DNA of 62,604 bases. Source: a virus. Its lineage: Duplodnaviria; Caudoviricetes. The notes beneath the pieces were generated by a model. It was given only the letters and a program-made list of their open reading frames with translations, ran no database searches and was not told the origin of the DNA. Made by a program: the position numbers and the translations under genes. Below, in pieces: positions 30,321 through 43,536 of the stretch. Each line of letters begins with the position of its first letter. Position 1 is the first letter of the stretch. The stretch covers positions 1 through 62,604 of the IMG/VR virus record IMGVR_UViG_3300044619_000874. The stretch is one strand, 5' to 3'.

Positions 30321-33300
30321 TCAGGCTCCCGGCGTTCCGAAGACGTCTACCGAGTGAATCTCGATGGGCCCGGTCGTAGAACGCTCTGCCGACAGTTCGA
30401 TGGCTACATGGCGGTCGTTGCCCTGTATGTCATCGACGGTGTGCGAAGAGAACAGAGCACGACACACGCCGGTAGAGATGCGGTCGGGCAGCAGGCCAGC
30501 GTCCATGTCGAGCGTGACGCACGGCTCTTGCGTCTGGTACACGACGCCCGTCCCGCGATCTCTCGCCGCTACATTGACTCGCGGGTGAGGCGAGTTGTTG
30601 TAGTACATGCGGAGTTTCATCAGGCTCGGGCCAGCGGTGGGGGTGAACAGCAGGCCGACGTTGCGGTTCTTGTCTGCCATCTCCACAGGCAAGGAGTCGT
30701 GCGGGTACTCCATGTTCCCTGACTTGAACCAGCACGGGATCGGGGCGGAGTTATTGTCCCCAACCGTGCAGGTGGCCGTTGCCCGTACGCCACCAGCGGG
30801 CGGAGGGTCAATGCTTACGCTTGCCGTCGTATAGCCGTAGCCGCCGTACCGCAGGTACACGCCAAGCAGCGTGCCGTCGCCAGAGATGGCGGCTTCGGCC
30901 ACAGCCCCATCGCCGTTGCCAGAGATAGTCACCTGTGGCGTCTTGGTGTAGCCCTTGCCGGGATTCGTGAGGGTGATGGTTTGGATCGAGTCGCACTCGA
31001 CGTCTTTGTCGCCAGAGTTGACCTCGTACAACTTCCCTTCCGGCCCGCCGTAGATGCAGCGGCTCACGCCAGCCGCGTCCCGAACTGTGGCGGAGCCCAC
31101 GAGAGCGGCTGGGTACCGCTCCTCCCACCACCCCTGCGCGTCGAACGAGAAGCAGAGCATCCGGGTGGGGTACTTGCCGGGCCCATCCCCCTTGAACCGC
31201 ACAGCCACGCGGAGGCAACGTGTCTTGCGGTCGGCCGTCACGGAGAACCAATCGTCCTGTGCGAAGTCGATCTTGTCGTCGAACAGGCTGCGGATACCGA
31301 GCGAGAGCGGCTGTACTTGCCCGCTTGCGTCCATCGCGTACACCCCTTGCGTGTCCATGCAGTAGACGAGACCCTCGAACTCATCCCAGCACCGCTGATT
31401 CAAGCACCCGCGATACGCTGCGATCTGGACGTTGGCGTCGATGATGGGCTGCGAGACGTAGGACAGGCGGTAAGAATGCCGCGTCTGCATCACCCCCAGT
31501 GAGGAGCCGTACGGAATCAGTGCCGTGATGTGGTCGTGACCCTTGACGTTCGTCTGGATGTTGATCTGGTTGATGTCAGGGCAGGACTCGGGCTCGTTGT
31601 ACTCTGAGAACTTGAGCCGGTTCGGACTGTTGCCGCCCGTGTCTACAGCCATCCACAGGCGGTCTTGAAACATCACCGCCACCGTCTTGTTCTTCGGCGG
31701 CACGCCAAAGCGATTCGCGTTGAGTTCGCCGTTCGGCAGCAGCACCGGCATGGCGGCGTAACCGGCGCGGTCGTAGTCAGTGAGTTGCTGGTCGGAGAGT
31801 TTGTCGGTGAATGAGGTTACGCCGCTGGCTACGCGATAGACCGTGTACGCCTGATCGCTCGTTGTGCGCCAGAGTTCGACCCTGAGTGGTCGTTGCGTGG
31901 CACTCGCTGGTGGCGGTGCCGCCACGACCCATGTCAACTGCTCGGCCCCCTCTCCAGTGTCGATGGTCGTTACGGGGGAGAGGCTGGAGCAGATAGGCCC
32001 GCCGCGATCTTCTGGGGTGTCGTCAACGTAGCGGTAGTAGCAGTCGTACTTACCTCGAATGTGAGGTCGGATAATGGCGACCGCTTTCGCGCCGCCGACG
32101 GGCACGCTGAGTTTCGGGGGGGAAGTGTACGAGCCACCCTTGAGGACGTTGACGGCCGTGATCTTGCCGTCCTTTACTGTGGTTTCGAGCACCGCTCCGT
32201 AGCCGTCGGAGTCGTCTACCTGAATGAAGGGCGGAACAGTGAACCCAGTGCCACCATCGTCTACCTTGACGCTCTTGATCGCGTAGGTTGAAGCAGCAGT
32301 GTCATCCCCCGCTCCGATAGTTGACTCGTGGGAGTAGAAGGCGATCCGCAGCGCAGAGGAGCCGCCACACTCGCCGGGCTTGTCGCCCACACCCAGCCTG
32401 CCCGAAGCGTGTATCTCGTACGCGACGTCCTTGTCGTACGGGCCGCCGCCGTTGGTGCCCTGTATGCCGCCGTTGCCGGGAGCGTAGCCCGGAATGTATA
32501 TGGTGCGGCCGCTAGTAAGAATCTCGACGCTGATCGGCGATCCTGCGGGGTAAAGCGCCGTGACGCTGGGCGGGAAACCCTCTGGGCCCGTTATGAGTCG
32601 CGTGCCGAAGGTGAGCAGCACCACCGCAGCGGTAGTGCTACCTGCAACCTTTACGACAAACTGGATTTCAGCCCCCCGATACCCAGCGTAGTACCAGACA
32701 CTCCCGTTCATGTCGGCGTAGTCCACCCAACTGCTTTGGATGATGTTCCCCATGCCGGGAACGAGCAGTTGCGGTGCGCCACCGCCCCCGCTAGTGATCA
32801 CCGCAGGCAGGCAGATGTACGGGGATGGCCTCGACACGACGCGGTACTTGCCGATGGCCTTCGGGTTGGAGACTGGGGTGGTCGGGCCGGTCGGGTCAGG
32901 CGTGTCGCCGTCCAGTGTGGCCGTGAGGGCCCCGAACTTGGAGTGCTGGTCTCCCAGTATCACGGTCGGCGTGGACTCATAGCCCTCGCCGTACTCCAGC
33001 ATGGAGAAGTCGCCCACCGCGTTGCCGGTGAGGAAGGCGCGGGCCTTCGCAACCTTGTCGGGACTGCCGCCGTCTATCGTCACCTTCGGGGCAGAGGTGT
33101 AGTAGTTGCCGCCCTCGATAACGTCGATGCGGGCGACGTAACTTTTCGGCGTTCCAGACGGCGTGACCGACGGCTTCGAGTTTGGGGCGTCGATGCCCAT
33201 GTCAACCGCCTCCGCATTCGTCAGATCAATGCGTGACGGGCGGATGCCGTTGCCCTGAAACAGGTAGCCGTATTTGTTCGGGCCTACCGCCAGCGTGGCC

Positions 33301-33332
33301 GGAGTGCTCTTTGCGATGGTACGGAGAAGCAT
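30321..33332 (-). CDS. Tail nozzle/stabilization-like protein with inserted beta repeats
   Basis: FQDRLW, KFSE.NEPE, ITALIPYGSSL, GCLNQRC; repeated GxGYTxxPxVT modules. Confidence 0.65.
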   Translation of the reverse strand: MLLRTIAKSTPATLAVGPNKYGYLFQGNGIRPSRIDLTNAEAVDMGIDAPNSKPSVTPSGTPKSYVARIDVIEGGNYYTSAPKVTIDGGSPDKVAKARAFLTGNAVGDFSMLEYGEGYESTPTVILGDQHSKFGALTATLDGDTPDPTGPTTPVSNPKAIGKYRVVSRPSPYICLPAVITSGGGGAPQLLVPGMGNIIQSSWVDYADMNGSVWYYAGYRGAEIQFVVKVAGSTTAAVVLLTFGTRLITGPEGFPPSVTALYPAGSPISVEILTSGRTIYIPGYAPGNGGIQGTNGGGPYDKDVAYEIHASGRLGVGDKPGECGGSSALRIAFYSHESTIGAGDDTAASTYAIKSVKVDDGGTGFTVPPFIQVDDSDGYGAVLETTVKDGKITAVNVLKGGSYTSPPKLSVPVGGAKAVAIIRPHIRGKYDCYYRYVDDTPEDRGGPICSSLSPVTTIDTGEGAEQLTWVVAAPPPASATQRPLRVELWRTTSDQAYTVYRVASGVTSFTDKLSDQQLTDYDRAGYAAMPVLLPNGELNANRFGVPPKNKTVAVMFQDRLWMAVDTGGNSPNRLKFSEYNEPESCPDINQINIQTNVKGHDHITALIPYGSSLGVMQTRHSYRLSYVSQPIIDANVQIAAYRGCLNQRCWDEFEGLVYCMDTQGVYAMDASGQVQPLSLGIRSLFDDKIDFAQDDWFSVTADRKTRCLRVAVRFKGDGPGKYPTRMLCFSFDAQGWWEERYPAALVGSATVRDAAGVSRCIYGGPEGKLYEVNSGDKDVECDSIQTITLTNPGKGYTKTPQVTISGNGDGAVAEAAISGDGTLLGVYLRYGGYGYTTASVSIDPPPAGGVRATATCTVGDNNSAPIPCWFKSGNMEYPHDSLPVEMADKNRNVGLLFTPTAGPSLMKLRMYYNNSPHPRVNVAARDRGTGVVYQTQEPCVTLDMDAGLLPDRISTGVCRALFSSHTVDDIQGNDRHVAIELSAERSTTGPIEIHSVDVFGTPGA

Positions 33333-33621: not shown

Positions 33622-34578
33622 TTACGCCCCCTGATCGGGGCCGAGCGGTGCGTAGGTTCCGGCGTACTGCGTGGTCACAGCGTCGGGCGTCCGGTCGTAC
33701 GGGGCTCGGCGACCCGAGATCGGAGCGATCACATCACCTTCCATCGCGAGTTTCAGATCGCGCTGGTACAGGCCAACGGCGGCGTTGATGTCCTTGCCCA
33801 TCATGCGGGCCATCCAGAGTTCGGAGCCCGTGAGGATGGCGGAGAACATGCCCGGCGACACATCGAGGTAGTCGCTGATGACGTACCGGCACTGTTCGGT
33901 GAACGCGCCAATGTTGGAGTCCAACAGCAGCGAAGTAGAGGAGGCGCGCGTCGTGATGCGGGCCTGTGCCTGATACGGGTAGAACCCGGAGAGCGGCTCC
34001 GGGTAGTTGCCCGGCGTGCCGATACGGAAGATCGAGCCTACGCAGCGGGCCGGGAAGTTCGTGCTGATGCCCGTGACGGTCGTGCCGTTGGAAGTGACAA
34101 ACCCCGTCCGCACCTGCGTCTCGTACCCCATCAGCGTCAGCGGCTTCGGGGCGCGGCGGTAGGTGTACTGGATGGCTGTGTTCGTGGCGAACTTGCCGCC
34201 GATGCACAGTTCCCATCGGTCGAAGAAGGCGGGGTCAGTGCTCTTGCGCACCGTCCAGTAAACGGCCTCGCCCAACGTGAGTTGGCTCTGTTCAAGCCGT
34301 AGCCACTCGGCCGGGCTGATGTACGAGGTCACCGTCGTGCGGTCGGGGAGCACGATGGCATCGACGTTCTTGCAGTCCTCCGGCAGCGGGTAGGTGTTGT
34401 CGGTCGGGGTTACGTTGATCGTGCCCGTCGTGACATGCCACAGCCAGTCTTTGGCGTTGCACACATCCCGGTAGGAGTGATGAACAGAGGCGCGGATGAC
34501 GCGGTGCTCCTGATCCTGCGATCCGCCACCAGCGGACTGCATGAGGTATTCGATTGCGTCGTGGGCACAGTAGTGCAT
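33622..34578 (-). CDS. Head-tail adaptor / tail tubular protein A-like
   Basis: DWLW...TYPLPED...YTYRRAP; position before nozzle genes. Confidence 0.65.
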   Translation of the reverse strand: MHYCAHDAIEYLMQSAGGGSQDQEHRVIRASVHHSYRDVCNAKDWLWHVTTGTINVTPTDNTYPLPEDCKNVDAIVLPDRTTVTSYISPAEWLRLEQSQLTLGEAVYWTVRKSTDPAFFDRWELCIGGKFATNTAIQYTYRRAPKPLTLMGYETQVRTGFVTSNGTTVTGISTNFPARCVGSIFRIGTPGNYPEPLSGFYPYQAQARITTRASSTSLLLDSNIGAFTEQCRYVISDYLDVSPGMFSAILTGSELWMARMMGKDINAAVGLYQRDLKLAMEGDVIAPISGRRAPYDRTPDAVTTQYAGTYAPLGPDQGA

Positions 34579-34606: not shown

Positions 34607-34807
34607 TTACTTGTGCTTTACGCCAGCGATCTTGTCCTTCGCAAACTGGATCACCTCTGGCGTCCAGTGCTGGGCAGCCATGTCCTTGACCGCTTGCGGG
34701 GCGTTATCGGGCAGCGGGCGAGCAGGCGAGTAGGTGCAGGCCCACAGGGTTCCGTTGCGGTTCTCGATGTAACTGATGACGCCGTGCTTTCCGATAGTCG
34801 TTCGCAT
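34607..34807 (-). CDS. Small fibre-associated protein
   Basis: 66 aa, HWTPEVI; follows fibre gene with TGATG overlap. Confidence 0.5.
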   Translation of the reverse strand: MRTTIGKHGVISYIENRNGTLWACTYSPARPLPDNAPQAVKDMAAQHWTPEVIQFAKDKIAGVKHK

Positions 34808-35334
34808 CAGAGGCTCCCCCGCAGCGGCGGATCGTCGGTCAAGTATGTGAAAGAGACAGAGAAGCCGCTCCCGGCGTCTTCACCGTCCTCAATCACCATC
34901 ACGGGGGCTTCTGCGTCAGCGTATGCGAGACTCCCGATGATCTTGCCTGCGGACGAGATCACCACTCCGGCGTAAGGATTCCGCGAGGTTTGCCCACTGG
35001 TCATGGTTTCCTTTATTGAAAACGGAAGCCCAAGCAGGGTGCTGTCGGGTCGCACGTCTGCGGCTTCAGCACTTGAAACGCCGATGAACAGGGTGACGAG
35101 TTGACCACTGCGAACCCAGTATCCTGCGCACGACGTGTCGATGGTCGCGTCATTACCGGGCGCAAGAAACTGCGGCTGCCACTCGCCGCTGAACTGCGTT
35201 TCGCCCTCCACGAGCAAGAAGCCATCGCTGCCCAGTGTGAGAGCGTTCCCAGCGTCAGCACTGACCGTAGACGGGCCGGGAGGCCCCTTGAGGGACTGCC
35301 ACCCGGCACCGTCGTATACCTTGACGTCCTTCAA
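34807..35334 (-). CDS. Tail fibre tip protein
   Basis: VKVYDGAGW start, GPPGP, VSADAGNALTLGSDG, GYWVRSGQLVTL...GLPF. Confidence 0.7.
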   Translation of the reverse strand: MKDVKVYDGAGWQSLKGPPGPSTVSADAGNALTLGSDGFLLVEGETQFSGEWQPQFLAPGNDATIDTSCAGYWVRSGQLVTLFIGVSSAEAADVRPDSTLLGLPFSIKETMTSGQTSRNPYAGVVISSAGKIIGSLAYADAEAPVMVIEDGEDAGSGFSVSFTYLTDDPPLRGSL

Positions 35335-35338
35335 TGGA

Positions 35339-36223
35339 CTACTCCTCGATCCAGAAGTCGCCGATGGCTGCGGTGGCGGGCTGCGTCGGGCTCTTGGTCA
35401 CAGCGACCGAGCGGCCATCAGCACCGTCTGCGCCCGGAGCACCATCGGCACCGGCGTCGCCCTTGTCGCCCTTTTCGCCAGCCGCAGCGGCGGCACCGTC
35501 AGCACCCTTTGAGGCGATGAGTTGCCACGATGCGGGCTCGGCGTCGGGCGTGACGCCCGTGCTACTCGGGTTGGCGATCTGGACGTAGGACGATCCGAGA
35601 TACGTCACGACGTCGTAGTTGTCGTAGTCGGGGCCAGCGACGAACTCGCCCTTGTAGGTGAACCCTTGACCGTCGGCACCGGGAGCCCCGTCAGCACCCG
35701 CCGCACCGTCAGCACCCTTCGTGGCGAGGGGAGCCCACGCAGTCGTGTCGGTGATGTCCTCGTCGCCGAACCCAGCGATCATGATGTAGGTGGTGCCTTG
35801 ATAGGTCACCACATCGTTGACGGCATATGCACTGCCGTCCCACTCACCCCGAAAGGTGAAGCCAACGCCATCGGCACCCGGAGCCCCGTCAGCACCAGCC
35901 TGACCGTCTTGGCCCGGAGCACCATCGGCACCGTCCGCACCGTCCTTGCCCGCCGGGCCGCGAATGCTGCCGACGTTCACCCACGAGGTGCCGTCCCACA
36001 CGAGGCCCTCGCCGGGATTCGTGCCAGCAGGGAAGCCAGCCGGAACCGGATCGGCAACGATCCACATGTCGCCAACGTCAGGGGTAGCGGACGGTGGGTA
36101 GACAGAGGCAGTGCCCTTGATGTCTACGCCGGAGCCGTCCTTGCCGTCCTTGCCGTCCGCGCCCGGAGGCCCGACGATGGAGACCCACGCTGTGCCGTCA
36201 AAGATGCTGACGTTCTTTGCCAT
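35339..36223 (-). CDS. Collagen-like tail fibre protein
   Basis: Gly-X-Y runs (GADGAPG); two G(E)W/F...Y...DVVTY.G modules. Confidence 0.8.
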   Translation of the reverse strand: MAKNVSIFDGTAWVSIVGPPGADGKDGKDGSGVDIKGTASVYPPSATPDVGDMWIVADPVPAGFPAGTNPGEGLVWDGTSWVNVGSIRGPAGKDGADGADGAPGQDGQAGADGAPGADGVGFTFRGEWDGSAYAVNDVVTYQGTTYIMIAGFGDEDITDTTAWAPLATKGADGAAGADGAPGADGQGFTYKGEFVAGPDYDNYDVVTYLGSSYVQIANPSSTGVTPDAEPASWQLIASKGADGAAAAAGEKGDKGDAGADGAPGADGADGRSVAVTKSPTQPATAAIGDFWIEE

Positions 36224-36235
36224 TGCTATCTGCCT

Positions 36236-36439
36236 CTAGGTGTTACTGATCCACACGGTTCCCGGCTTCGCACTTGCGGGCTGGGTGTTCTGCACTAGGA
36301 CTTCCACTGACTCGCCAGCGTCGCCCTTATCGCCTTTGTCGCCCTTGTCGCCTTTGGGGCCGGGCGTGCCTCCACCGCTCCCAGTGGTTATGGGCTTCCA
36401 CGAGTCGGTATCGACGTCGAAGTAGTAAATGACTGCCAT
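36236..36439 (-). CDS. Short collagen-like fibre connector
   Basis: GPKGDKGDKGDKGDAG; C-terminal QP....GTVW. Confidence 0.7.
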   Translation of the reverse strand: MAVIYYFDVDTDSWKPITTGSGGGTPGPKGDKGDKGDKGDAGESVEVLVQNTQPASAKPGTVWISNT

Positions 36440-36440
36440 G

Positions 36441-37829
36441 TCAGTACGCCGCCTTCCAGCGGATGCCCGAGAATGTCGCCTCGCTTGATCGTGCGCCGGG
36501 ACTAACTTTGATGTCACGATTGTTCTGATGAATCGTGCAGAACCCGTAGGTGACAGCAGTGCCAACAAGCCGCATGGCGAGGGGGAACTTCGATTCAAGT
36601 TCTGCAAGCGGGAACTGTGGCGGCAGTCGCAGCGGCACCCACTCGCCGATGCCCGCACCAAACGACAGAGTCCCCTTGAGTTCGATGAAGCCCCCAATCA
36701 TCCTCGCCTGAATCTCGGTAGAAACAGACTCCTTCGCCCCATCCATGCGCACCATCCATGTCCAATCAATGTCGGGCGGAGGAGGCTTCGTGCCACCGAC
36801 GAGCATTAACTTCACCGCGTCAAGGACGGACTTCTTGAAGTCGGCCAACGCTGGATCGTTGATCGTCGGCGAGCCAAGCGGACTGATCGCGGTCAGTTTG
36901 TCATCGACCTGCTTGCGCGAGTACAGCATCAACGCCATCTGGTTGTCGAAGTCGGCCTTGCTGAACGCTTGGTCGATCCGCATGAAGCGGTCGTCGGTCT
37001 GCTTCTGCGTGTATACGTCGGTCTTGAGGGGGTAGCGGAAGTCCGCTTCAGCCCGCGTGTAGATCGAATCAAAGATTGTCTGTACTTGGTTACGGAGAAG
37101 GTCGAGGGCTTCGAGCCTGCCGTACCGGGTGTCGGCGGTTGCGAGCGTGACGTACGGGGCGAGGTCAATGACCGGAGCGGCCTTGCTCTCCAGCGTCTCG
37201 ATGCGTGGCAGGAGGGCGTTTAGCGGTTCGAGGTCGGACTTGTAGACGAGGAACTCGTTGTTGAGTCCGACGTTCAGAACGAGCCGGGCTCCGTAGCCCT
37301 CGCCCGTGTCCGTGTACCCGAGAGCGACAGGTGGCAGCAACGTGTCGCCAAACCCGTAAGCCTGCGACACGACGGTCTTAGCGAGGAACGGCTGCTGATT
37401 GTCCTGCTTGGCGGCGTATCGGTCATCTGACTCGACCCGCGTGTAGATCGAGTCGAACACCGCCTGCAACTGCGTCGTGATCAGCGTCGTGGTCGAGAGC
37501 GGGGCGAACTTCCCGTCTACTTCCACCTTCGTGTAGGTGACGGCTTGGTCGGCCTTGAGGTCGATCTTCACCTGCAACTGCCGTGCGGTCTCGGTGACGG
37601 CGAACAGGACTTGGTTCTGCACGGCATCGAGGTCGAGGGCACCCTCATCACGGCACACCTTGATCGCGGCGTCAGTCTCTGGCTTGGTGTAGTACACCGA
37701 CAGGTCTGTGGCCGGGATGGCCGCAATGGCGGCATCGACGTACTCGGTCTTGGCGTAGTCCTCAAGACCAGCCGGTGACGCGACTATCTCTTCCCACTTC
37801 CCGTTGTTGTAGACGTTGAGAGTTTTCAT
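36441..37829 (-). CDS. Tail fibre / receptor-binding protein
   Basis: YTK/YTR repeats; C-terminal PDIDWT...LRLP head domain. Confidence 0.75.
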   Translation of the reverse strand: MKTLNVYNNGKWEEIVASPAGLEDYAKTEYVDAAIAAIPATDLSVYYTKPETDAAIKVCRDEGALDLDAVQNQVLFAVTETARQLQVKIDLKADQAVTYTKVEVDGKFAPLSTTTLITTQLQAVFDSIYTRVESDDRYAAKQDNQQPFLAKTVVSQAYGFGDTLLPPVALGYTDTGEGYGARLVLNVGLNNEFLVYKSDLEPLNALLPRIETLESKAAPVIDLAPYVTLATADTRYGRLEALDLLRNQVQTIFDSIYTRAEADFRYPLKTDVYTQKQTDDRFMRIDQAFSKADFDNQMALMLYSRKQVDDKLTAISPLGSPTINDPALADFKKSVLDAVKLMLVGGTKPPPPDIDWTWMVRMDGAKESVSTEIQARMIGGFIELKGTLSFGAGIGEWVPLRLPPQFPLAELESKFPLAMRLVGTAVTYGFCTIHQNNRDIKVSPGARSSEATFSGIRWKAAY

Positions 37830-37830
37830 G

Positions 37831-38913
37831 CTAATAGGCGTAGGCTTGAGCCCCCGTCAGTTCGGTACCGGTGATCTTGCCGTCCCCGACCACGCCGACG
37901 CCGCCGTCCGCGTAGAACCGAACGAACACGCGGCGGTAAGACACGCCAGTGTCGTAGCCGAATGCCACGACGGTTTGGTCGCGGGGTGGCTTCGGGAAGT
38001 TCGCGGGCAGTCGCTGCGCTACCGTGAACGTGCCTGTGGCGGTGACGGTGAGGGTCAGTTCTCCACGCAGTTGGATCATTCCGTTCAGGACACGGGCCTC
38101 GATCAGGCCAGAGCCCGCGACCTTCACGCATGGAGTCCAGTCGATGTCGGCCGGTACGGTCTTGCCGCCAGCCATCACATTGCGAACCTCGTCAATGACG
38201 CTCTTCCGCATCGCGGCGAGGGAGTCGTCGGAAAGGCGGAGCGTGGAGAGTTGGCGGGTCGTGAGGTTGACTGTTGCAGGTGACAACCACAGGTCGCCGT
38301 CCTTGAGGTCGCCAGCCGGAGCGGTGGGGCTCTCGTATACGGCAGGTCGCTCGCCGCCTGCACCAGTGGGAATGTTGAACAGGTCAACCATTCCGACAGG
38401 GGCGAAGGGCTTGTCGAGTTCATCGGATGCAAGCCGCATCAGCCGACCGCCGTCGTCCTGCGTCAGCGTCGATGGGTTCTGTGGCGTCGGCAGGCCAGCC
38501 TCTGACTTGACGATCTTCGTGACCGAGCGGACTGGGCCGTTCATCACGATGGTGGTCTGGTACTCCTGTCGCTTGATGGCGACGAGGGCACCGGAAGCGT
38601 CGAAGTAGTGCAGGCCGTCGGCGTAGTCCTTGAAGGCGTCTTCGAGGGCGGAGGGCGTTGCGGCAGTCGGCTGTGGCGTCGCGCCCGCATGGCCGGTGAT
38701 CGGCTGTGTCGGGAACAGGTCGGTCACATCGGCAAGGGCCGTATCGACGTACTCGGTCGTGGCGTACGCCGACAGGTCAACGTCACCTGTTGCAGCGTTT
38801 GCAACAAGTGCATCGACCTCCAAGTCGGTGTAGTACCCGACCAGCCCCTTCGTGTAGGCCCACGAGGAGGTGGAGTCAGTCCGCGTCGGTAGTGCGCGAT
38901 CAGGTGCTGGCAT
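37831..38913 (-). CDS. Tail fibre / receptor-binding protein
   Basis: DLSAYATTEYVD; GDLW motif; paralogous C-terminal head domain. Confidence 0.7.
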   Translation of the reverse strand: MPAPDRALPTRTDSTSSWAYTKGLVGYYTDLEVDALVANAATGDVDLSAYATTEYVDTALADVTDLFPTQPITGHAGATPQPTAATPSALEDAFKDYADGLHYFDASGALVAIKRQEYQTTIVMNGPVRSVTKIVKSEAGLPTPQNPSTLTQDDGGRLMRLASDELDKPFAPVGMVDLFNIPTGAGGERPAVYESPTAPAGDLKDGDLWLSPATVNLTTRQLSTLRLSDDSLAAMRKSVIDEVRNVMAGGKTVPADIDWTPCVKVAGSGLIEARVLNGMIQLRGELTLTVTATGTFTVAQRLPANFPKPPRDQTVVAFGYDTGVSYRRVFVRFYADGGVGVVGDGKITGTELTGAQAYAY

Positions 38914-39269
38914 CAGACGTCACAGATGGGAATGAGGTACTTCTTGCCACCAATCACAACCGGGATGGCCCCAGTGATGAGAGGCTGATGGAAGGTCTGG
39001 CCGTCAGCAGACAGGCCAATGGGAGTGCCGTCGGCTTGCTCAATGATCGGGTCTTCCACGACGGTGATCGGGCTGGAAGCGGTGAACTCGCTGGTGCCAG
39101 TTCCAGTCCCGGTGGAGTCCCCAGTGGGGTCAATCCAGATGGCATCCACGCCGGGAGGGGCGGGCGCAACATCCGACACGAAGACCTGCGGCTCCGACGA
39201 ACCGCCGACGCCCGCAAGGGGAGCCCATGCGGTGCCGTTCCAAACGCGGAGTTCAACTGCGTCAGCCAT
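38913..39269 (-). CDS. Fibre connector protein
   Basis: LRVWNGTAW start; VSDVAP...AIWID; TGATG overlaps at both ends. Confidence 0.65.
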   Translation of the reverse strand: MADAVELRVWNGTAWAPLAGVGGSSEPQVFVSDVAPAPPGVDAIWIDPTGDSTGTGTGTSEFTASSPITVVEDPIIEQADGTPIGLSADGQTFHQPLITGAIPVVIGGKKYLIPICDV

Positions 39270-40354
39270 CAGGTAATCCTCACTGACGCACCGTCGAAGT
39301 ACACCGTGTCGCAGCCGCCGCACGCGACACTGAGCCAGCCGTTCGTCCGCACGTTCACCGTGCCGAGTACTGGGACTGTCGCGGTCGGGGAAGTGCGGCC
39401 AGTGATGAACGCCCGAGTGCCCACGCTCGGACGAGCGAAGGCGGGGGGGAGTTGGAGGTAGGCAAGTCCACCCTGCGAAGCCTGCGTGGTCTGGCCCGCC
39501 GCCATCTCGAAGGAGCCCCTGAGGTAGAGGACGCCATTCAACTGAATGGCCTCGACTGTCGAGGTCTGGGGGCCGGGCTGGATGGCGGCAATGATCGGAC
39601 AGGGCGTCCAAGTCGTGATGTCCGGTGGCGGAACCACCCCACCGTTCAGCGTCTTGCGAATGTCGGGGAGAATGGCCGCTGCAATGGCCGCAGTGTCAAC
39701 GGCCTCGCCAGCGGGGAGTGCTGCGAGTTTGGCGTCGATCTCTGACTGCACTTGAGCGAGCGTGATCCCCTTGCTGGCCGGAGCACTGGCCGCATCAACA
39801 GGCTTGGCCCAGATGGTCGGCAGGGCGGGGTCGCCCGGAGGGGAGGGCGGCTGCGTGTCGGATACCACTACGGGCTCGGCGAAGTACCAGCCACTCGCAG
39901 GGTCTAGGTCTGCCCGAAGGTAGCCCTGCTGAGTCGGCGTCGGAAGTTCGTAGCCGGGAGCACCGCCAGCACGAATCGGGCCACCGGAGCCGTAGAGCAG
40001 CGTCCCGAAGACGGCGGAGGTCGAACTCAACCAACCCGCACCGCCGCCGAAGTCGCCAAGATCGCCGGGCCCCGTAATGTCCACGCGAGTGAACAGAACC
40101 GGCTGGGACTGGAACGCAGCCTTGAGAGCCATCTCCTCCGACCACTGCTGGATCGGAAGGTTGGGCGAGGCAGTGAGGCCGGTGATCGGGCCAGTGGCAG
40201 TCGTGTCAACCGTGCCGCTTGGCATCGAGGCAGTGGCGAGATCGACAATGCTCTTGACGGTGACGCGCTGCGTGGTGGTGCCGTTCACGACCGGCACGAT
40301 GCTGGTCGCTGTGGCTACCCCGGTCGGCAGTGCTGTGATCTTGACGTCGGCCAT
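39269..40354 (-). CDS. Tail fibre / receptor-binding protein
   Basis: MADVKITALP...TQRVT anchor-type start; paralogous head domain. Confidence 0.75.
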   Translation of the reverse strand: MADVKITALPTGVATATSIVPVVNGTTTQRVTVKSIVDLATASMPSGTVDTTATGPITGLTASPNLPIQQWSEEMALKAAFQSQPVLFTRVDITGPGDLGDFGGGAGWLSSTSAVFGTLLYGSGGPIRAGGAPGYELPTPTQQGYLRADLDPASGWYFAEPVVVSDTQPPSPPGDPALPTIWAKPVDAASAPASKGITLAQVQSEIDAKLAALPAGEAVDTAAIAAAILPDIRKTLNGGVVPPPDITTWTPCPIIAAIQPGPQTSTVEAIQLNGVLYLRGSFEMAAGQTTQASQGGLAYLQLPPAFARPSVGTRAFITGRTSPTATVPVLGTVNVRTNGWLSVACGGCDTVYFDGASVRIT

Positions 40355-40880: not shown

Positions 40881-41435
40881 TCAGGACTTCTTATTCCAGT
40901 GCGGGGTGTGGGTTTCCCTGATCCGACGCTCTGCCGCCCGTAGGGTGGTGCCCGGATTTTCACGCACCTCCTTCTTGGCAAGTTCCCTGACCAGCCGTGG
41001 GTTCAGCCCGTTTGCCCGCTTGGGCGGCGCGACGCCCTCGGGAGGCTCGTAGTTCACTTGCCCGCGAAGTTCGAGTTTCCGCTCCTTGGCGACGCGGAGC
41101 ACGTCTTCCCTGTCGGAGACCCACGCCTTCGGGTCGAGGTGGCACTTCTTGTTCGCCAGCCCCGACATGTAGTACTTGCCCTCGGTGCTGATCCCGGCGG
41201 CCTTAGCCTCCTTGAGCATCCACTTGGCCTGCTTGGTCGGCAGCCCATCGAGCCACTCGCCGTTCTTCCGGCCCTTCATCCACGAGTCGTTCGTGCCGTG
41301 GACTGCCGGTGCGGCTTGGAGCGCGCACATCTCCGCCCAGCGGGGCGTCTGGCCGTCAGAGATCATCTTCCGGTAGTGCCGCTGCACTTCCGCACTAGCG
41401 TTCGAGATGTCGGGCGGAAGATCGATGTCAACCAT
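40881..41435 (-). CDS. Hypothetical protein downstream of portal
   Basis: 184 aa, overlaps portal stop. Confidence 0.6.
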   Translation of the reverse strand: MVDIDLPPDISNASAEVQRHYRKMISDGQTPRWAEMCALQAAPAVHGTNDSWMKGRKNGEWLDGLPTKQAKWMLKEAKAAGISTEGKYYMSGLANKKCHLDPKAWVSDREDVLRVAKERKLELRGQVNYEPPEGVAPPKRANGLNPRLVRELAKKEVRENPGTTLRAAERRIRETHTPHWNKKS

Positions 41436-43536
41436 TCGGGACTCCTTCAGGCGAGGCCACCCCCGCGCCGCTGCCTTCTTCTTGAGAAGCGTTACCCCCG
41501 GCGGGGGGAGGGAGACCCGGTTCTCCGGGGGGAGGCATTGGCGGCGGCGGGGGTGGCGGTGGAAGTAGGAACGGAGTGGGATCGAGGTCGTTTGCCTTCG
41601 CCCATTCGGTGAGCAAGGCGTTCATGGGGCCGACTACGCCAGCAGCGACAAGGGGCTGGAGCAGCGGGGCGAGCGTCTGGAACGCCATGCCCATGCGGTC
41701 TTGCGAAGCCTGCTTGTCTAGCCGCCGAGCCGAGCCGCTCTCGATGGAGTACTCGAACTCGCGCGTGATGGCGGAGAAGTCCATGCCGTCCTTGGGGGAC
41801 ATGTGCATGGCCCACGCCTCTGCCCCAAGCGGGCCGAGCACCGGGGCGACGTCCTTGGGTTGCAGGAGCCACCGGGAGGCCATCGCCTCCTTGCGCGCAA
41901 CGAGCGACATGAAGTGCTCGAAGTTCGAGGCCATGTCGTCTGGCCGAATAGAGAGGTTCGACTGCTTGATCGACGCCTCGCTGGCCGATCGCATTTGATT
42001 CCGCGAGGAGCCGTACACGAGTTCCGTGAGGCCGACGCGCTTGTCGAACTGCTCCCCGACGGCAGCCAAAATTTCCCACATGTCCCGAGTCACGCCCGGC
42101 GTCTGGAACACGGAGATGATGTCGTTCACTGATCGGCCAAGCGACTCGCTGACCTCGATCAGTTTGAAGCCGTTCTCGGATGGGGCGAGTATCTGATCCT
42201 TGAGGTCTGTATCCGCCGCCTTCGAGACGCCGATCATCGTCTCGCACGAGACGGCAATGCGGGTCATCAGGAAACTCATTCCCCAATTCAGGAAGCGAAG
42301 TTCTCCGATGCCCGGCCGGATGTGAGACACGGGCCAGAGCGAGTTTGGCTTGCGGTGAGGAGCCCACATCGTGAACGGCCACCCGCCATTGTCGGCCCAC
42401 AGCGGGATGGGCCATGACGCCCGGACTCGCAGCGACTGCGGCAGGCCGTCCTGATCCAGTTCCTCGTCCATCACGGACGGCGGTACGTTGAGCGGGAAGT
42501 CCACGCCCTCTGCCACAACGATGTATGCGTTGTCGCCGAGCGGGTCGAACGTGCCACGGTCTTCCTTCTTGGCGTCCTTCAGCCGGTCGCCGAACCCGCA
42601 CTTGCTCCAAATCTTCCAGAACTGCACGAGGTCGTTGGTCTTGCCGGTTCGCTTCTTGCCCGGCCGCCCGTCACCGTAGCGATCGTCGGTGTGCTTGGAG
42701 GTGGACTCGTACGATTCGAGGTTCGGCTTGAGGTCGGCGCGCGAGAGGGCAAACATGCGGCAGACCTGATCAATCGGGAGCGTGCATCGCTTGGCGCACC
42801 AGTTGATCTCCTCGATGACCTGCGCATCCGGATCGAGCAGGAGGTTGTCGATCGAGTCGAAGAATGAGCCGATGACGAGCGTGGGCTCTGCGGGCGGCAC
42901 GTTGGGCTGCTCGACCGCCTCTGTCCACAGGACGCCGCCGCCCTTGATGATCCCCTCGTCGACAACCTGCCTGCCATGCGAGATGAGGTTGTTCTCGACG
43001 GGCGTCCAGTTGAGGTAGGTCTCAAGGAGTTCGGCCTGCATCTCCTTGGCTTGGTCAGCCATGCCGATGGCCTGCGACGCCTGCATGAAACGCATCACGC
43101 CTTCGTCGGGCATCGGCTGCCCGGTCATTGGGTCAACCTGATAGGCGTTCGGATCGACTCCCACCATCTCTGGCGGGATCACCGGGAACTTCCGGGGCGT
43201 GACCGTGCGCACTGGGTTGCGGTTGTAGATCACCGCGCCAATGAGTTTCACGGCCTCCCACACCCGGTTCACCGTGAGGCGAAACGCGGGCGCGGGAGTT
43301 GGCCGTGACATGAGGTTCTGACCCTTGACGCTGTTCTCGAAGAACCAGCGGGGCCCGCCGTCGAAGAAGTGCATGGCCTCGCGGGCGTCCGAGTCGAACG
43401 CGGACTTGGCCCGCTTGGCCGCACTGATCTTCTTCAGCCACGCCTGCGCGATGGGCCGGAGTGGGGAGTTGGGGTTGAGCGAGGTCTGCTTCATGTCCTC
43501 GCCGTCGCCCTTGTCCTCCATTAAGTCTTCCGCCAT
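41428..43536 (-). CDS. Portal protein
   Basis: 702 aa after terminase; LTVNRVW, RSASEA, Pro-rich C-terminal tail. Confidence 0.8.
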   Translation of the reverse strand: MAEDLMEDKGDGEDMKQTSLNPNSPLRPIAQAWLKKISAAKRAKSAFDSDAREAMHFFDGGPRWFFENSVKGQNLMSRPTPAPAFRLTVNRVWEAVKLIGAVIYNRNPVRTVTPRKFPVIPPEMVGVDPNAYQVDPMTGQPMPDEGVMRFMQASQAIGMADQAKEMQAELLETYLNWTPVENNLISHGRQVVDEGIIKGGGVLWTEAVEQPNVPPAEPTLVIGSFFDSIDNLLLDPDAQVIEEINWCAKRCTLPIDQVCRMFALSRADLKPNLESYESTSKHTDDRYGDGRPGKKRTGKTNDLVQFWKIWSKCGFGDRLKDAKKEDRGTFDPLGDNAYIVVAEGVDFPLNVPPSVMDEELDQDGLPQSLRVRASWPIPLWADNGGWPFTMWAPHRKPNSLWPVSHIRPGIGELRFLNWGMSFLMTRIAVSCETMIGVSKAADTDLKDQILAPSENGFKLIEVSESLGRSVNDIISVFQTPGVTRDMWEILAAVGEQFDKRVGLTELVYGSSRNQMRSASEASIKQSNLSIRPDDMASNFEHFMSLVARKEAMASRWLLQPKDVAPVLGPLGAEAWAMHMSPKDGMDFSAITREFEYSIESGSARRLDKQASQDRMGMAFQTLAPLLQPLVAAGVVGPMNALLTEWAKANDLDPTPFLLPPPPPPPPMPPPGEPGLPPPAGGNASQEEGSGAGVASPEGVPNG

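Follow-up and report, generated by a model that had tools for sequence, protein, structure and literature searches.

Seven tightly packed fibre genes on the minus strand of a 62.6-kb podovirus-like phage (positions 34807-40354 of the window, i.e., of the whole analysed stretch of 62,604 bases) raise the question of why gene borders repeatedly separate the two halves of a motif that also occurs uncut in the same cluster, and whether the halves meet again in the assembled fibre. We call the first half C1, or socket, and the second half N2, or plug, and the motif that they form the node. Our best reading, to which sequence comparison leads us to give a probability of roughly 55%, is that the fibre subunits are joined head to tail through a node re-formed in trans.

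An earlier note on this DNA had described the motif as intact once and halved elsewhere, and this was confirmed, with N2 in five proteins (within residues 4-18 of gp118, gp462, gp67, gp294 and gp175), C1 in five, and the single intact motif in gp294. When the six frames of the 62,604 bases were searched with the strict N2 pattern ([LIVMFYW][WYF][DN][GNSAVD]..W), all five matches fell inside the cluster (four N-termini and the intact motif); a looser pattern, the only one to find the gp67 version, gave eight matches, six of them in the cluster. The C1 core pattern (G[DT].W and a hydrophobic residue) matched ten times, four times elsewhere and six times in the cluster (four true first halves and two overlapping second halves), and missed the degenerate C1 of gp118 (..DAIW) and gp361 (..PTIW).

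All features that follow lie on the minus strand and are given in gene order. The fibre protein gp361 (39269-40354) consists of an N-terminal virion-anchor part (residues 1 to about 160), its degenerate C1 (residues 162-183, 39806-39871), a neck and a C-terminal domain. Its stop overlaps by 1 nt the start of gp118 (38913-39269, ATG at 39269), in which N2 (residues 7-18, 39216-39251) is followed by a Gly-rich linker of 10 residues, the degenerate C1 (residues 29-47, 39129-39185) and, at the C-terminus, a small knob. A second anchor-type protein, gp360 (37831-38913), has an internal C1 (residues 191-210, 38284-38343) ahead of a neck and a C-terminal domain, and gp462 (36441-37829) is a long fibre protein starting with N2 (residues 4-15, 37785-37820). 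The connector gp67 (36236-36439) has N2 at residues 4-17 and C1 at its other end (residues 45-64, 36248-36307), three residues before the stop; the Gly linker between them includes about seven G-X-Y triplets. N2 of gp294 (35339-36223; N2 at residues 5-16) is followed by collagen, the intact node (residues 33-84, 35972-36127), further collagen that includes two CBM_5_12-like units, and finally C1 (residues 273-292, 35348-35407), two residues before the stop. The putative distal subunit gp175 (34807-35334) has N2 at residues 4-15, a conserved N-terminal module of 41 residues (35212-35331) and a variable C-terminal domain.

The genes are packed as in an operon, with gaps of -1 to 12 nt in which no promoter-like site was found, and they are translated separately. 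A Shine-Dalgarno-like GAGGAG or AGAGG lies upstream of two of them, and gp175 starts with TTG 4 nt past the end of gp294, its GAGGAG lying 7 nt ahead of that codon. The flanking gene at 33622-34578 scores 23.1 bits against the SU10-type tail adaptor (PF24175; E 1.2e-4), below the cut-off of 27, and matches phrog_6013 'tail protein' at E 3e-4, scores that we take as a lead towards a podovirus-like tail and not as family membership. The window's portal had no tblastn match among 50,697 phage records.

In four cases the second half begins the very next gene, as the earlier note had stated (gp361 to gp118, gp360 to gp462, gp67 to gp294 and gp294 to gp175), with C1 at the extreme C-terminus only in gp67 and gp294, two of the five proteins that carry it. 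C1 lies 178 residues before the stop in gp361 and 150 in gp360, and in both a neck and a C-terminal domain of the same protein come after it. With gp118, three of the five first halves are thus internal, each continued by a domain of the same chain, and a symmetric trimeric joint is difficult to envisage at such sites. Because N2 also precedes non-collagen shafts (gp462 and gp118) and C1 also follows non-collagen parts (gp360 and gp361), the halves are not simply collagen caps.

The uncut node is found in other phages as well. Thirteen cis instances were found in long fibre ORFs of other loci, between collagen segments, with a Pro-rich loop of 6 to 23 residues, and the gp175 N-terminal module is likewise embedded, downstream of collagen, in ORFs of 322-1434 aa from eight loci. 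Against a profile of the cis node, the C-termini of gp67 and gp294 align with positions 4-17 and gp360 residues 198-216 with positions 5-23, the N-termini of gp294, gp175 and gp118 fall on positions 28-52 (gp118 residues 3-22 on positions 28-47), and the degenerate C1 of gp361 is not picked up (i-E 3.6). The half-matches are individually weak (i-E 0.001-0.09 against 13 sequences), and they occupy complementary, non-overlapping parts of the profile. In the AlphaFold2 monomer of gp294, pLDDT is 85-93 over residues 31-80, including the node loop, which is predicted to be ordered (pLDDT 93), and 78 over residues 81-90; this model argues for the node as one compact unit.

The split at the motif is conserved across many contigs and several divergent lineages. 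Among 93 loci gathered by homology, many of whose junctions share common ancestry, 36 distinct ORFs with a collagen context end in C1, and for 30 of these a gene that starts with N2 lies no more than 150 nt downstream; the six exceptions are two inserted ORFs (one of 245 aa in L010 and one of at least 129 aa in L093, each separating the two partners), three locus ends and one junk frame. The lineage of L107 adds a further two of two, and divergent junction types were seen in L012, L024/26/27/30, L077 (twice), L009/L095 and L107. The position of the cut is nearly fixed: the chain ends 2-4 residues after the W-hydrophobic pair in 74/74 proteins and begins 5-6 residues ahead of the N2 turn in 105/107. 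Flanks specific to a junction type are kept together with the gene order, e.g., ..VWISN.. followed by MAKNVSIFDG.., and ..GDFWIEE followed by MKD.K.YDG..WQSLKGPPGPS.

Related proteins show how the halves are combined with other parts. The knob of gp118 is fused directly to a gp361-type anchor in L003, L005, L007 and L010, and the body of gp462 is fused to gp360-type N-terminal parts in L009 and L024, where both the gp462 N2 and the gp360 C1 are absent; N2 thus behaves as an attachment module interchangeable with covalent fusion to an anchor. The N-terminal part of gp361 is common to 310-aa proteins of relatives, which run from C1 into gp118-type knobs and part ways with gp361 right after C1. 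The cassette of C1, neck and C-terminal domain in gp361 is homologous to gp360 196-309 (27% identity, E 2e-6), and the C-terminal domain of gp360 to that of gp462 (41% identity, E 7e-12); neither gp361 nor gp360 matched any Pfam or PHROG family. The gp67 family counts 32 sequences (31 besides gp67) of 52-70 aa, all built as N2, short collagen and C1 with no other part; gp67 itself, with its few triplets, had no Pfam match. The shaft-like gp294 belongs to Collagen (PF01391; 43.4 bits, gathering score 27.2, E 2.9e-11) and CBM_5_12 (PF02839; 37.1 bits against 26.2, E 3.2e-9, in two stretches). Eight of the 37 homologues of gp175 share only its first ~41-50 residues, at 67-86% identity, and the 16 invariant columns of the family all lie within residues 2-37, so that the N-terminal 41 residues are conserved on unrelated distal domains.

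We hypothesize that the cluster encodes subunits of multi-protein, probably trimeric, fibres, and that the node is a four-stranded beta unit of about 50 residues made of the C1 hairpin (a strand, S/T-x-P, a loop and GDxW-hydrophobic), a Pro-rich loop and the N2 hairpin (hydrophobic-x-hydrophobic-aromatic-D-G-x-x-W). Because the gene borders of this phage fall in the loop, proteins start with the plug and end with, or contain, the socket. C1 of a proximal subunit and N2 of the next would then combine by beta-sheet complementation in trans into non-covalent head-to-tail joints, and the order of subunits would likely be that of the genes. In such a fibre gp361 and gp360 may be anchor proteins binding the tail, with gp118 plugged into the internal socket of gp361 and gp462 into that of gp360, and the bare connector gp67 may lead to the collagen/CBM shaft gp294 and on to gp175 with its exchangeable distal binding domain. 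The physical contact between C1 and N2, the pairing of plug to socket and the stoichiometry are what we infer in this scheme.

The earlier note had proposed plug-and-socket joints that build a long or branched fibre with exchangeable parts. The exchangeable joints fit the comparative evidence, i.e., the conserved split, the cis versions, the complementarity on the profile, the gp67 family, the gp175 module and the anchor fusions. Branching would depend on the internal first halves, with the difficulty of geometry described above. The one-to-one count of orphan sockets and plugs, which holds in the window (5:5), in L005, L007, L010 and L089 (4:4) and in L009 (3:3), is broken in L026/L030 (6:5).

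The same observations can be read in other ways. The halves could be independent end modules, N2 being an attachment or trimerisation hairpin that docks elsewhere on the virion (on another fibre domain, an adaptor or the nozzle) and C1 simply the element with which the preceding module ends; the Pro-rich loop would then be a natural domain border. The variable length and Pro content of the cis loop, the three internal first halves with their own downstream domains and the unequal counts in L026/L030 agree with this, and the anchor fusions mark N2 as an attachment module only, leaving its target unspecified. Moreover, hairpins like N2 occur as repeats in large, unrelated cellular proteins, so the hairpin is not specific to fibres. 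Independent modules would, however, leave the gp67-type proteins without a function, and they account neither for the N2-start gene behind 30 of the 36 C1-terminal ones, with the rest explained, nor for the fixed termini, nor for a loop predicted to be ordered; we consider this reading unlikely. Complementation could also be homotypic or intramolecular, with gp67, gp294 and gp118 polymerising with themselves head to tail or folding back so that N2 pairs with the C1 of the same chain in a circularly permuted node, without cognate heterotypic joints. In gp118 and in the 550-571-aa proteins of L026/L030, N2 and C1 are only ~10-20 residues apart in permuted order, and the pLDDT of the termini of the gp294 monomer (84-85 for the N-terminal and 89-93 for the C-terminal end, with 40-55 in the collagen between) is what self-pairing would be expected to give, although confident prediction of each hairpin by itself would explain it just as well. 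Against self-pairing, gp175, gp462 and their relatives have N2 only and need a foreign socket, the type-specific flanks are conserved with gene order, and a folded collagen rod would hold the ends of gp294 apart, which makes this improbable.

Two further explanations concern the genes more than the proteins. The motif could serve mainly as a linker at which cassettes are swapped by homologous recombination, the gene borders having no structural meaning. Mosaic break points do lie at the first half, as between gp361 and the 310-aa proteins, and the gp175-type N-terminal module is joined to many distal domains; conservation, however, is at the protein level across lineages that differ in codon and sequence make-up, and nothing about a recombination linker calls for stop and start codons to keep a constant position within the motif. 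Such exchange is compatible with the node re-formed in trans and does not replace it, and as the main explanation we hold it to be still more improbable than self-pairing. Finally, the cluster could be a single long fibre gene, whose pieces are either connected through read-through or frameshifting or are the product of decay or sequencing error. In the window 12 nt separate the TAG stop of gp67 from the ATG of gp294, which is in the same frame, and in relatives the gp175 frame is open for ~20 codons upstream of the start. Recoding is nevertheless excluded because the gaps at equivalent junctions, of 2 to 64 nt, fall in frames 0, 1 and 2; each gene has its own start codon, two of them with the ribosome-binding-like sites described above, whole ORFs are inserted between partners in L010 and L093, and the split is retained in dozens of independent contigs, which leaves a single broken gene with hardly any probability.

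Two analogies are of the idea only. In chaperone-usher pili, donor-strand complementation fills the fold of one subunit with a strand of the next; these are monomer chains of Ig-like subunits. In the T4 fibritin foldon, three small beta-hairpins form a trimer that sets the register of a fibrous trimer, as a C-terminal domain in cis. The sole foldon-containing PDB match, 1nay (E 0.046), aligned to the collagen/CBM-like part of gp294 and not to the halves. Both DUF2793 and DUF2510 have similar short motifs (LP..G..GD.Y-hydrophobic ... Y.Y.G.AW) and match the cis node and N2-profile proteins weakly. For DUF2793 (PF10983), gp294 residues 43-82 score 10.4 bits against a threshold of 27, and three of the 13 cis nodes match, at best with E 0.023, while the match to 8rk3 has E 0.29; DUF2510 turns up in other proteins, and there only close to its cut-off. 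DUF2793 has been solved in 8rk3, a chain of a JBD30 virion protein (PMC11445458).

In the anchor-branch receptor-binding proteins (RBPs) of Klebsiella podophages KP32, K11 and KP34, RBP1 has a branching domain and RBP2 a conserved docking peptide (PMC13352976; PMC6872550). As in the scheme proposed for the window, a tail-anchored first fibre protein receives a second one by a short conserved N-terminal peptide, the distal domains are exchangeable and the genes are adjacent. The N-terminal parts of gp361 and gp360 are conserved and common to relatives, and the gp175 family, with its short conserved N-terminal peptide on variable distal domains, resembles a secondary RBP by functional analogy only. 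The Klebsiella socket is a dedicated branching domain, whereas no Pfam domain was found in gp361 or gp360, and the plug and socket of the window resemble two parts of a single small fold which also occurs in uncut form. The window system is moreover serial, with as many as three consecutive joints, and includes collagen-like shafts and bare connectors. In the long tail fibre of T4, gp34, gp35, gp36 and gp37 are similarly products of neighbouring genes joined end to end in gene order (PMC5537660). None of the seven window proteins matched a Pfam family of T4 fibres, including Phage_T4_gp36, which gave a sub-threshold match in one relative's protein (19.9 against 26 bits). To our knowledge, T4 fibre joints have not been described as two parts of one fold that occurs without interruption in other settings.

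In the chain-like fibres of podophages A1002, GP4 and VP1, one tail protein offers multiple sites to which several small units bind by beta-sheet augmentation; the units are dimers of ~140-170 aa carried on a nozzle-rope protein (PMC13730344). The anchor of L026/L030, with three socket-like first halves, likewise offers multiple docking sites, while the fibres of these podophages have no collagen, trimeric head-to-tail chain or motif in common with the window. The EHEC prophage proteins EPclA-D also have collagen triple helices flanked or interrupted by small globular trimerisation modules; in the material drawn on here they are single polypeptides with PfN, PCoil, Pf2 and PfC domains, and no split between genes is described for them (PMC3368898). 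These four Pfam families had no match in the window proteins.

The cluster is a new variant of the known modular or branched phage fibres. More tentatively, and with the odds somewhat against it, the node may be a general split trimeric fold which self-assembles in trans and acts as a universal snap-fastener for phages of several morphotypes, with collagen cassettes (55-300 aa, starting with a plug and ending with a socket) chained to set the length of the fibre and multi-socket hubs displaying several receptor-binding tips. If this is true, exchange of the last small gene alone would retarget the phage, and the naturally orthogonal plug and socket types would be usable for designed protein fibres.

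The fibre motif is halved between genes much as the earlier note described, its second half (N2, the plug) starting five genes, its first half (C1, the socket) occurring in five, and one intact motif lying in gp294. The seven fibre genes are all on the minus strand in the order gp361 (39269-40354), gp118 (38913-39269, its ATG sharing one base with the gp361 stop), gp360 (37831-38913), gp462 (36441-37829), gp67 (36236-36439), gp294 (35339-36223) and gp175 (34807-35334, starting with TTG), and are separated by -1, -1, 1, 1, 12 and 4 nt, respectively. No promoter-like site was found in the cluster, and terminator-like sites occurred there at chance level only. N2 stands at the start of gp118, gp462, gp67, gp294 and gp175. 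A strict N2 pattern gave five matches in six frames of the whole window, all of them in the fibre cluster, four N-terminal and one in the intact motif of gp294; the N2 of gp67 was caught only with a looser pattern. First halves lie at the gene end in gp67 and gp294, where the stop codon follows three and two residues on; C1 is internal in gp118 and gp360 and, with a degenerate sequence, in gp361, and is thus C-terminal in only two of five.

The window, 62,604 bases making up an entire virus record, has a G+C content of ~63%. Genes for the major head protein, large terminase and portal, recognised by weak PHROG matches on the minus strand, are followed by three small genes and the fibre cluster, beyond which come a 66-aa gene, a gene with a below-threshold match to the SU10 adaptor and the gene for a 1003-aa protein. 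Because of the head, terminase, portal, adaptor-like and tail- or baseplate-like genes around the cluster, the virion is probably podovirus-like. The 66-aa gene (34607-34807, minus strand), right after gp175, keeps its place in all close relatives (contigs L001, L005, L089, L095 and L096); no Pfam or PHROG match was found for it, and its product could be a fibre assembly factor. The 1003-aa protein (30321-33332, minus strand), for which no Pfam family was found, carries two or three copies of a ~70-residue tail- or baseplate-like unit whose PHROG matches (best E 5.6e-24) are labelled head closure, baseplate wedge or virion structural protein. The C-terminus of the portal protein (41428-43536, minus strand) is a proline-rich tail, with eight consecutive prolines at one point, that relatives L003 and L006 share.

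The whole motif, or node, occurs uninterrupted between collagen segments of long fibre ORFs of other phages (13 instances, e.g., in ORFs of 979 and 1434 aa), and in eight loci the post-N2 module of gp175 is embedded in ORFs of 322-1434 aa, behind collagen. In the gp175-family proteins P0003, P0022 and P0030, this module (..PS.DAGN....GSDGLL..) appears twice, the second copy lying ~100 residues further on and ahead of the distal domain. Against a profile of the uncut node, the C-termini of gp67 and gp294 matched positions 4-17 and the N-termini of gp294, gp175 and gp118 positions 28-52, all with weak individual scores, and the variable loop is the sole stretch that C1 and N2 matches leave uncovered. 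This loop is mostly 19 residues long in uncut nodes (range 6-23); in the split forms, 2-4 residues follow the W-hydrophobic pair of C1 in all 74 proteins and 5-6 precede the N2 turn in 105 of 107. An AF2 monomer model of gp294, built on a 40-sequence alignment, predicts four strands in the node (34-39, 52-56, 72-76 and 81-86), with pLDDT of 85-93 over residues 31-80, loop included, and 78 over 81-90; both terminal hairpins reach 84-93 and the collagen parts 40-55. The high values across the node and its loop favour one compact unit in the predicted structure.

The split is conserved. A gp67-like, gp294-like, gp175-like chain with unchanged borders was found in a relative whose portal is 82% identical and in five more viral contigs, and further metagenome and genome contigs keep it likewise. 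Among 93 loci there were 36 distinct C1-ending ORFs in a collagen context, 30 of which were followed by an N2-start ORF within 150 nt; since the loci were gathered by homology, this count reflects conservation and not 30 independent events. The six exceptions comprise two with an inserted ORF (L010 and L093), three locus ends, where the locus stops 106-214 nt past the stop codon of the C1 ORF, and one junk frame. In the lineage of L107, both further C1-ending ORFs were followed by an N2-start ORF. Junction types are divergent in sequence among lineages, e.g., ..GALWIVK / MATVKIWTGAAW in L012, ..GAIWFQIP / MADPNPHIFDGTKW in L024/L030 and, at two places in the siphovirus-like L077, ..GDFWIVP. 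The extra ORFs of the two unrelated contigs (L010:5267-6004 and L093:4215-4601) sit exactly between the C1-terminal gene and its N2 partner, which in L010 starts 738 nt downstream. The one in L010 is similar to an ORF that precedes the anchor gene in L005 (715-1341) and L007 (1014-1640). HNH-like motifs were seen in the inserted ORFs by eye; Pfam gave no match for the L010 and L007 ORFs and, for the cut L093 ORF, HTH matches only. The inserted ORFs could be mobile genes of the homing-endonuclease type that target fibre-gene junctions. Amid the fibre genes of L026 (2907-3083) and L030 (2845-3021) lies a 58-aa ORF with a hydrophobic stretch resembling a membrane helix.

The halves also recur as termini across protein families. 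With the C-terminal 59 residues of gp294 as query, 61 proteins were retrieved, in which pattern scoring found 40 N2 starts and 36 C1 ends, with additional ones recognised by eye. The gp67 family has 31 further proteins of 52-70 aa, made of N2, a glycine linker, 5-7 G-X-Y triplets and C1, with no other part. Residues 1-41 of gp175 recur at 67-86% identity in eight proteins otherwise unrelated in sequence, and every one of the 16 invariant columns in the alignment of the family falls within residues 2-37. In relatives, the gp118 knob is joined directly to a gp361-type anchor (the virion-anchor part) at the first half, and in L009 and L024 the gp462 body continues from gp360-type N-terminal parts, with the fusion point differing between the two, both fusions lacking the N2 of gp462 and the C1 of gp360. 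The L026/L030 anchor protein (Mtd_N match, E 1e-7), which has three C1-like sites, stops just past a C1, and the next gene opens with N2. Shafts without collagen come after N2 and domains without collagen before C1, so neither half is a mere collagen cap.

We propose that the node is re-formed in trans from C1 of one protein and N2 of another. Such joints would link the anchor, gp67, gp294 and gp175 into a chain, with gp118 and gp462 seated on internal sockets of gp361 and gp360. The plug-and-socket joints proposed in the earlier note are supported in part: the conserved split, the uncut forms and the use of N2 as an attachment module speak for them, whereas sockets and plugs are unequal in L026/L030. 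Orphan sockets and plugs were counted by eye, because an automated census was too noisy, and numbered 5:5 in the window, 4:4 in L005, L007, L010 and L089, 3:3 in L009 and 6:5 in L026/L030; with adjacent N2-C1 pairs such as gp118 taken as self-satisfied, the window has 4:4 and L026/L030 5:4. Complementation could instead be homotypic or intramolecular, which we consider improbable.

The strongest rival, though still unlikely, is that the halves are independent end modules and N2 docks elsewhere. The fusion variants show N2 as a substitute for covalent attachment and do not by themselves establish C1 as its partner. The N2 hairpin as such is not fibre-specific, because large cellular repeat proteins also match: an N2-start profile matched 279 representative proteins (E <= 0.001) out of 1.84 billion, and of the 150 matches listed 58 were N-terminal, including other mini-connectors of 55-68 aa, the remainder being large repeat proteins of cells. 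Four of them (P0132, P0139, P0144 and P0150) are non-phage-looking and very large, reaching 3646 aa and as many as 26 N2-like hairpins; signal-peptide-like starts and Calx-beta domains occur in some. As a C1-like element often precedes the hairpin there, the whole node may also be a tandem repeat unit of cellular surface proteins. That the motif is a pure recombination linker is slightly less probable again than homotypic or intramolecular pairing. Recoding or artefact is the least credible reading. Junction gaps of 2 to 64 nt in all three frames exclude read-through and frameshifting and, with the inserted ORFs, rule out recoding or fusion of the genes, while recurrence in independent contigs and protein clusters rules out assembly artefact and pseudogenes.

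No close cultured phage was found: tblastn with the portal and gp175 had no match in 50,697 phage records, nor did the L077 distal protein match cultured phages. In blastn of the cluster against cultured phages only collagen-coding stretches of 45-66 nt matched. The gp294 protein matched jumbo Pseudomonas phage fibres in their CBM-like part alone. Sequence searches of the PDB gave nothing significant for gp294 (best E 0.046, a collagen-foldon chimera) or the uncut-node profile (best E 0.093, an unrelated amidase-like protein). The ESM Atlas held only 'collagen-like' or unnamed clusters without models, and Pfam has no family for the node, DUF2793 being far under the cut-off. The 97.7-kb contig L096, from a Crocinitomicaceae MAG bin, carries the complete fibre chain, its gp175 being 92% identical; downstream, in place of the adaptor-like gene, it has two large proteins (1013 and 623 aa) with an Mtd_N-like QRIQ.RRDTAA.W start. 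Either the bin hints at the host or a phage contig was mis-binned; Crocinitomicaceae is not trusted as the host.

The closest described system is the anchor-branch receptor-binding proteins of Klebsiella podophages, with their conserved docking peptide (PMC13352976), followed by the T4 long fibre, built of four proteins (PMC5537660), and by A1002, GP4 and VP1, whose fibre dimers dock by beta-augmentation (PMC13730344); prophage fibres that are collagen-like and have globular interruptions are related as well (PMC3368898). In the open-access literature, supplements aside, no account was found of a fibre fold divided between consecutive genes. With the putative C1-N2 joints, the cluster would be a variant of modular multi-protein phage fibres. 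Multi-protein and branched phage fibres are known, and subunit recognition is understood in few systems. If the joints are one small fold across two polypeptides, fibre architecture would be readable from gene order in uncultured phages, many tiny collagen-like ORFs of viral metagenomes would be explained, and the two halves, of about 15 and 20 residues, could serve as compact connectors in modular fibre or host-range engineering.
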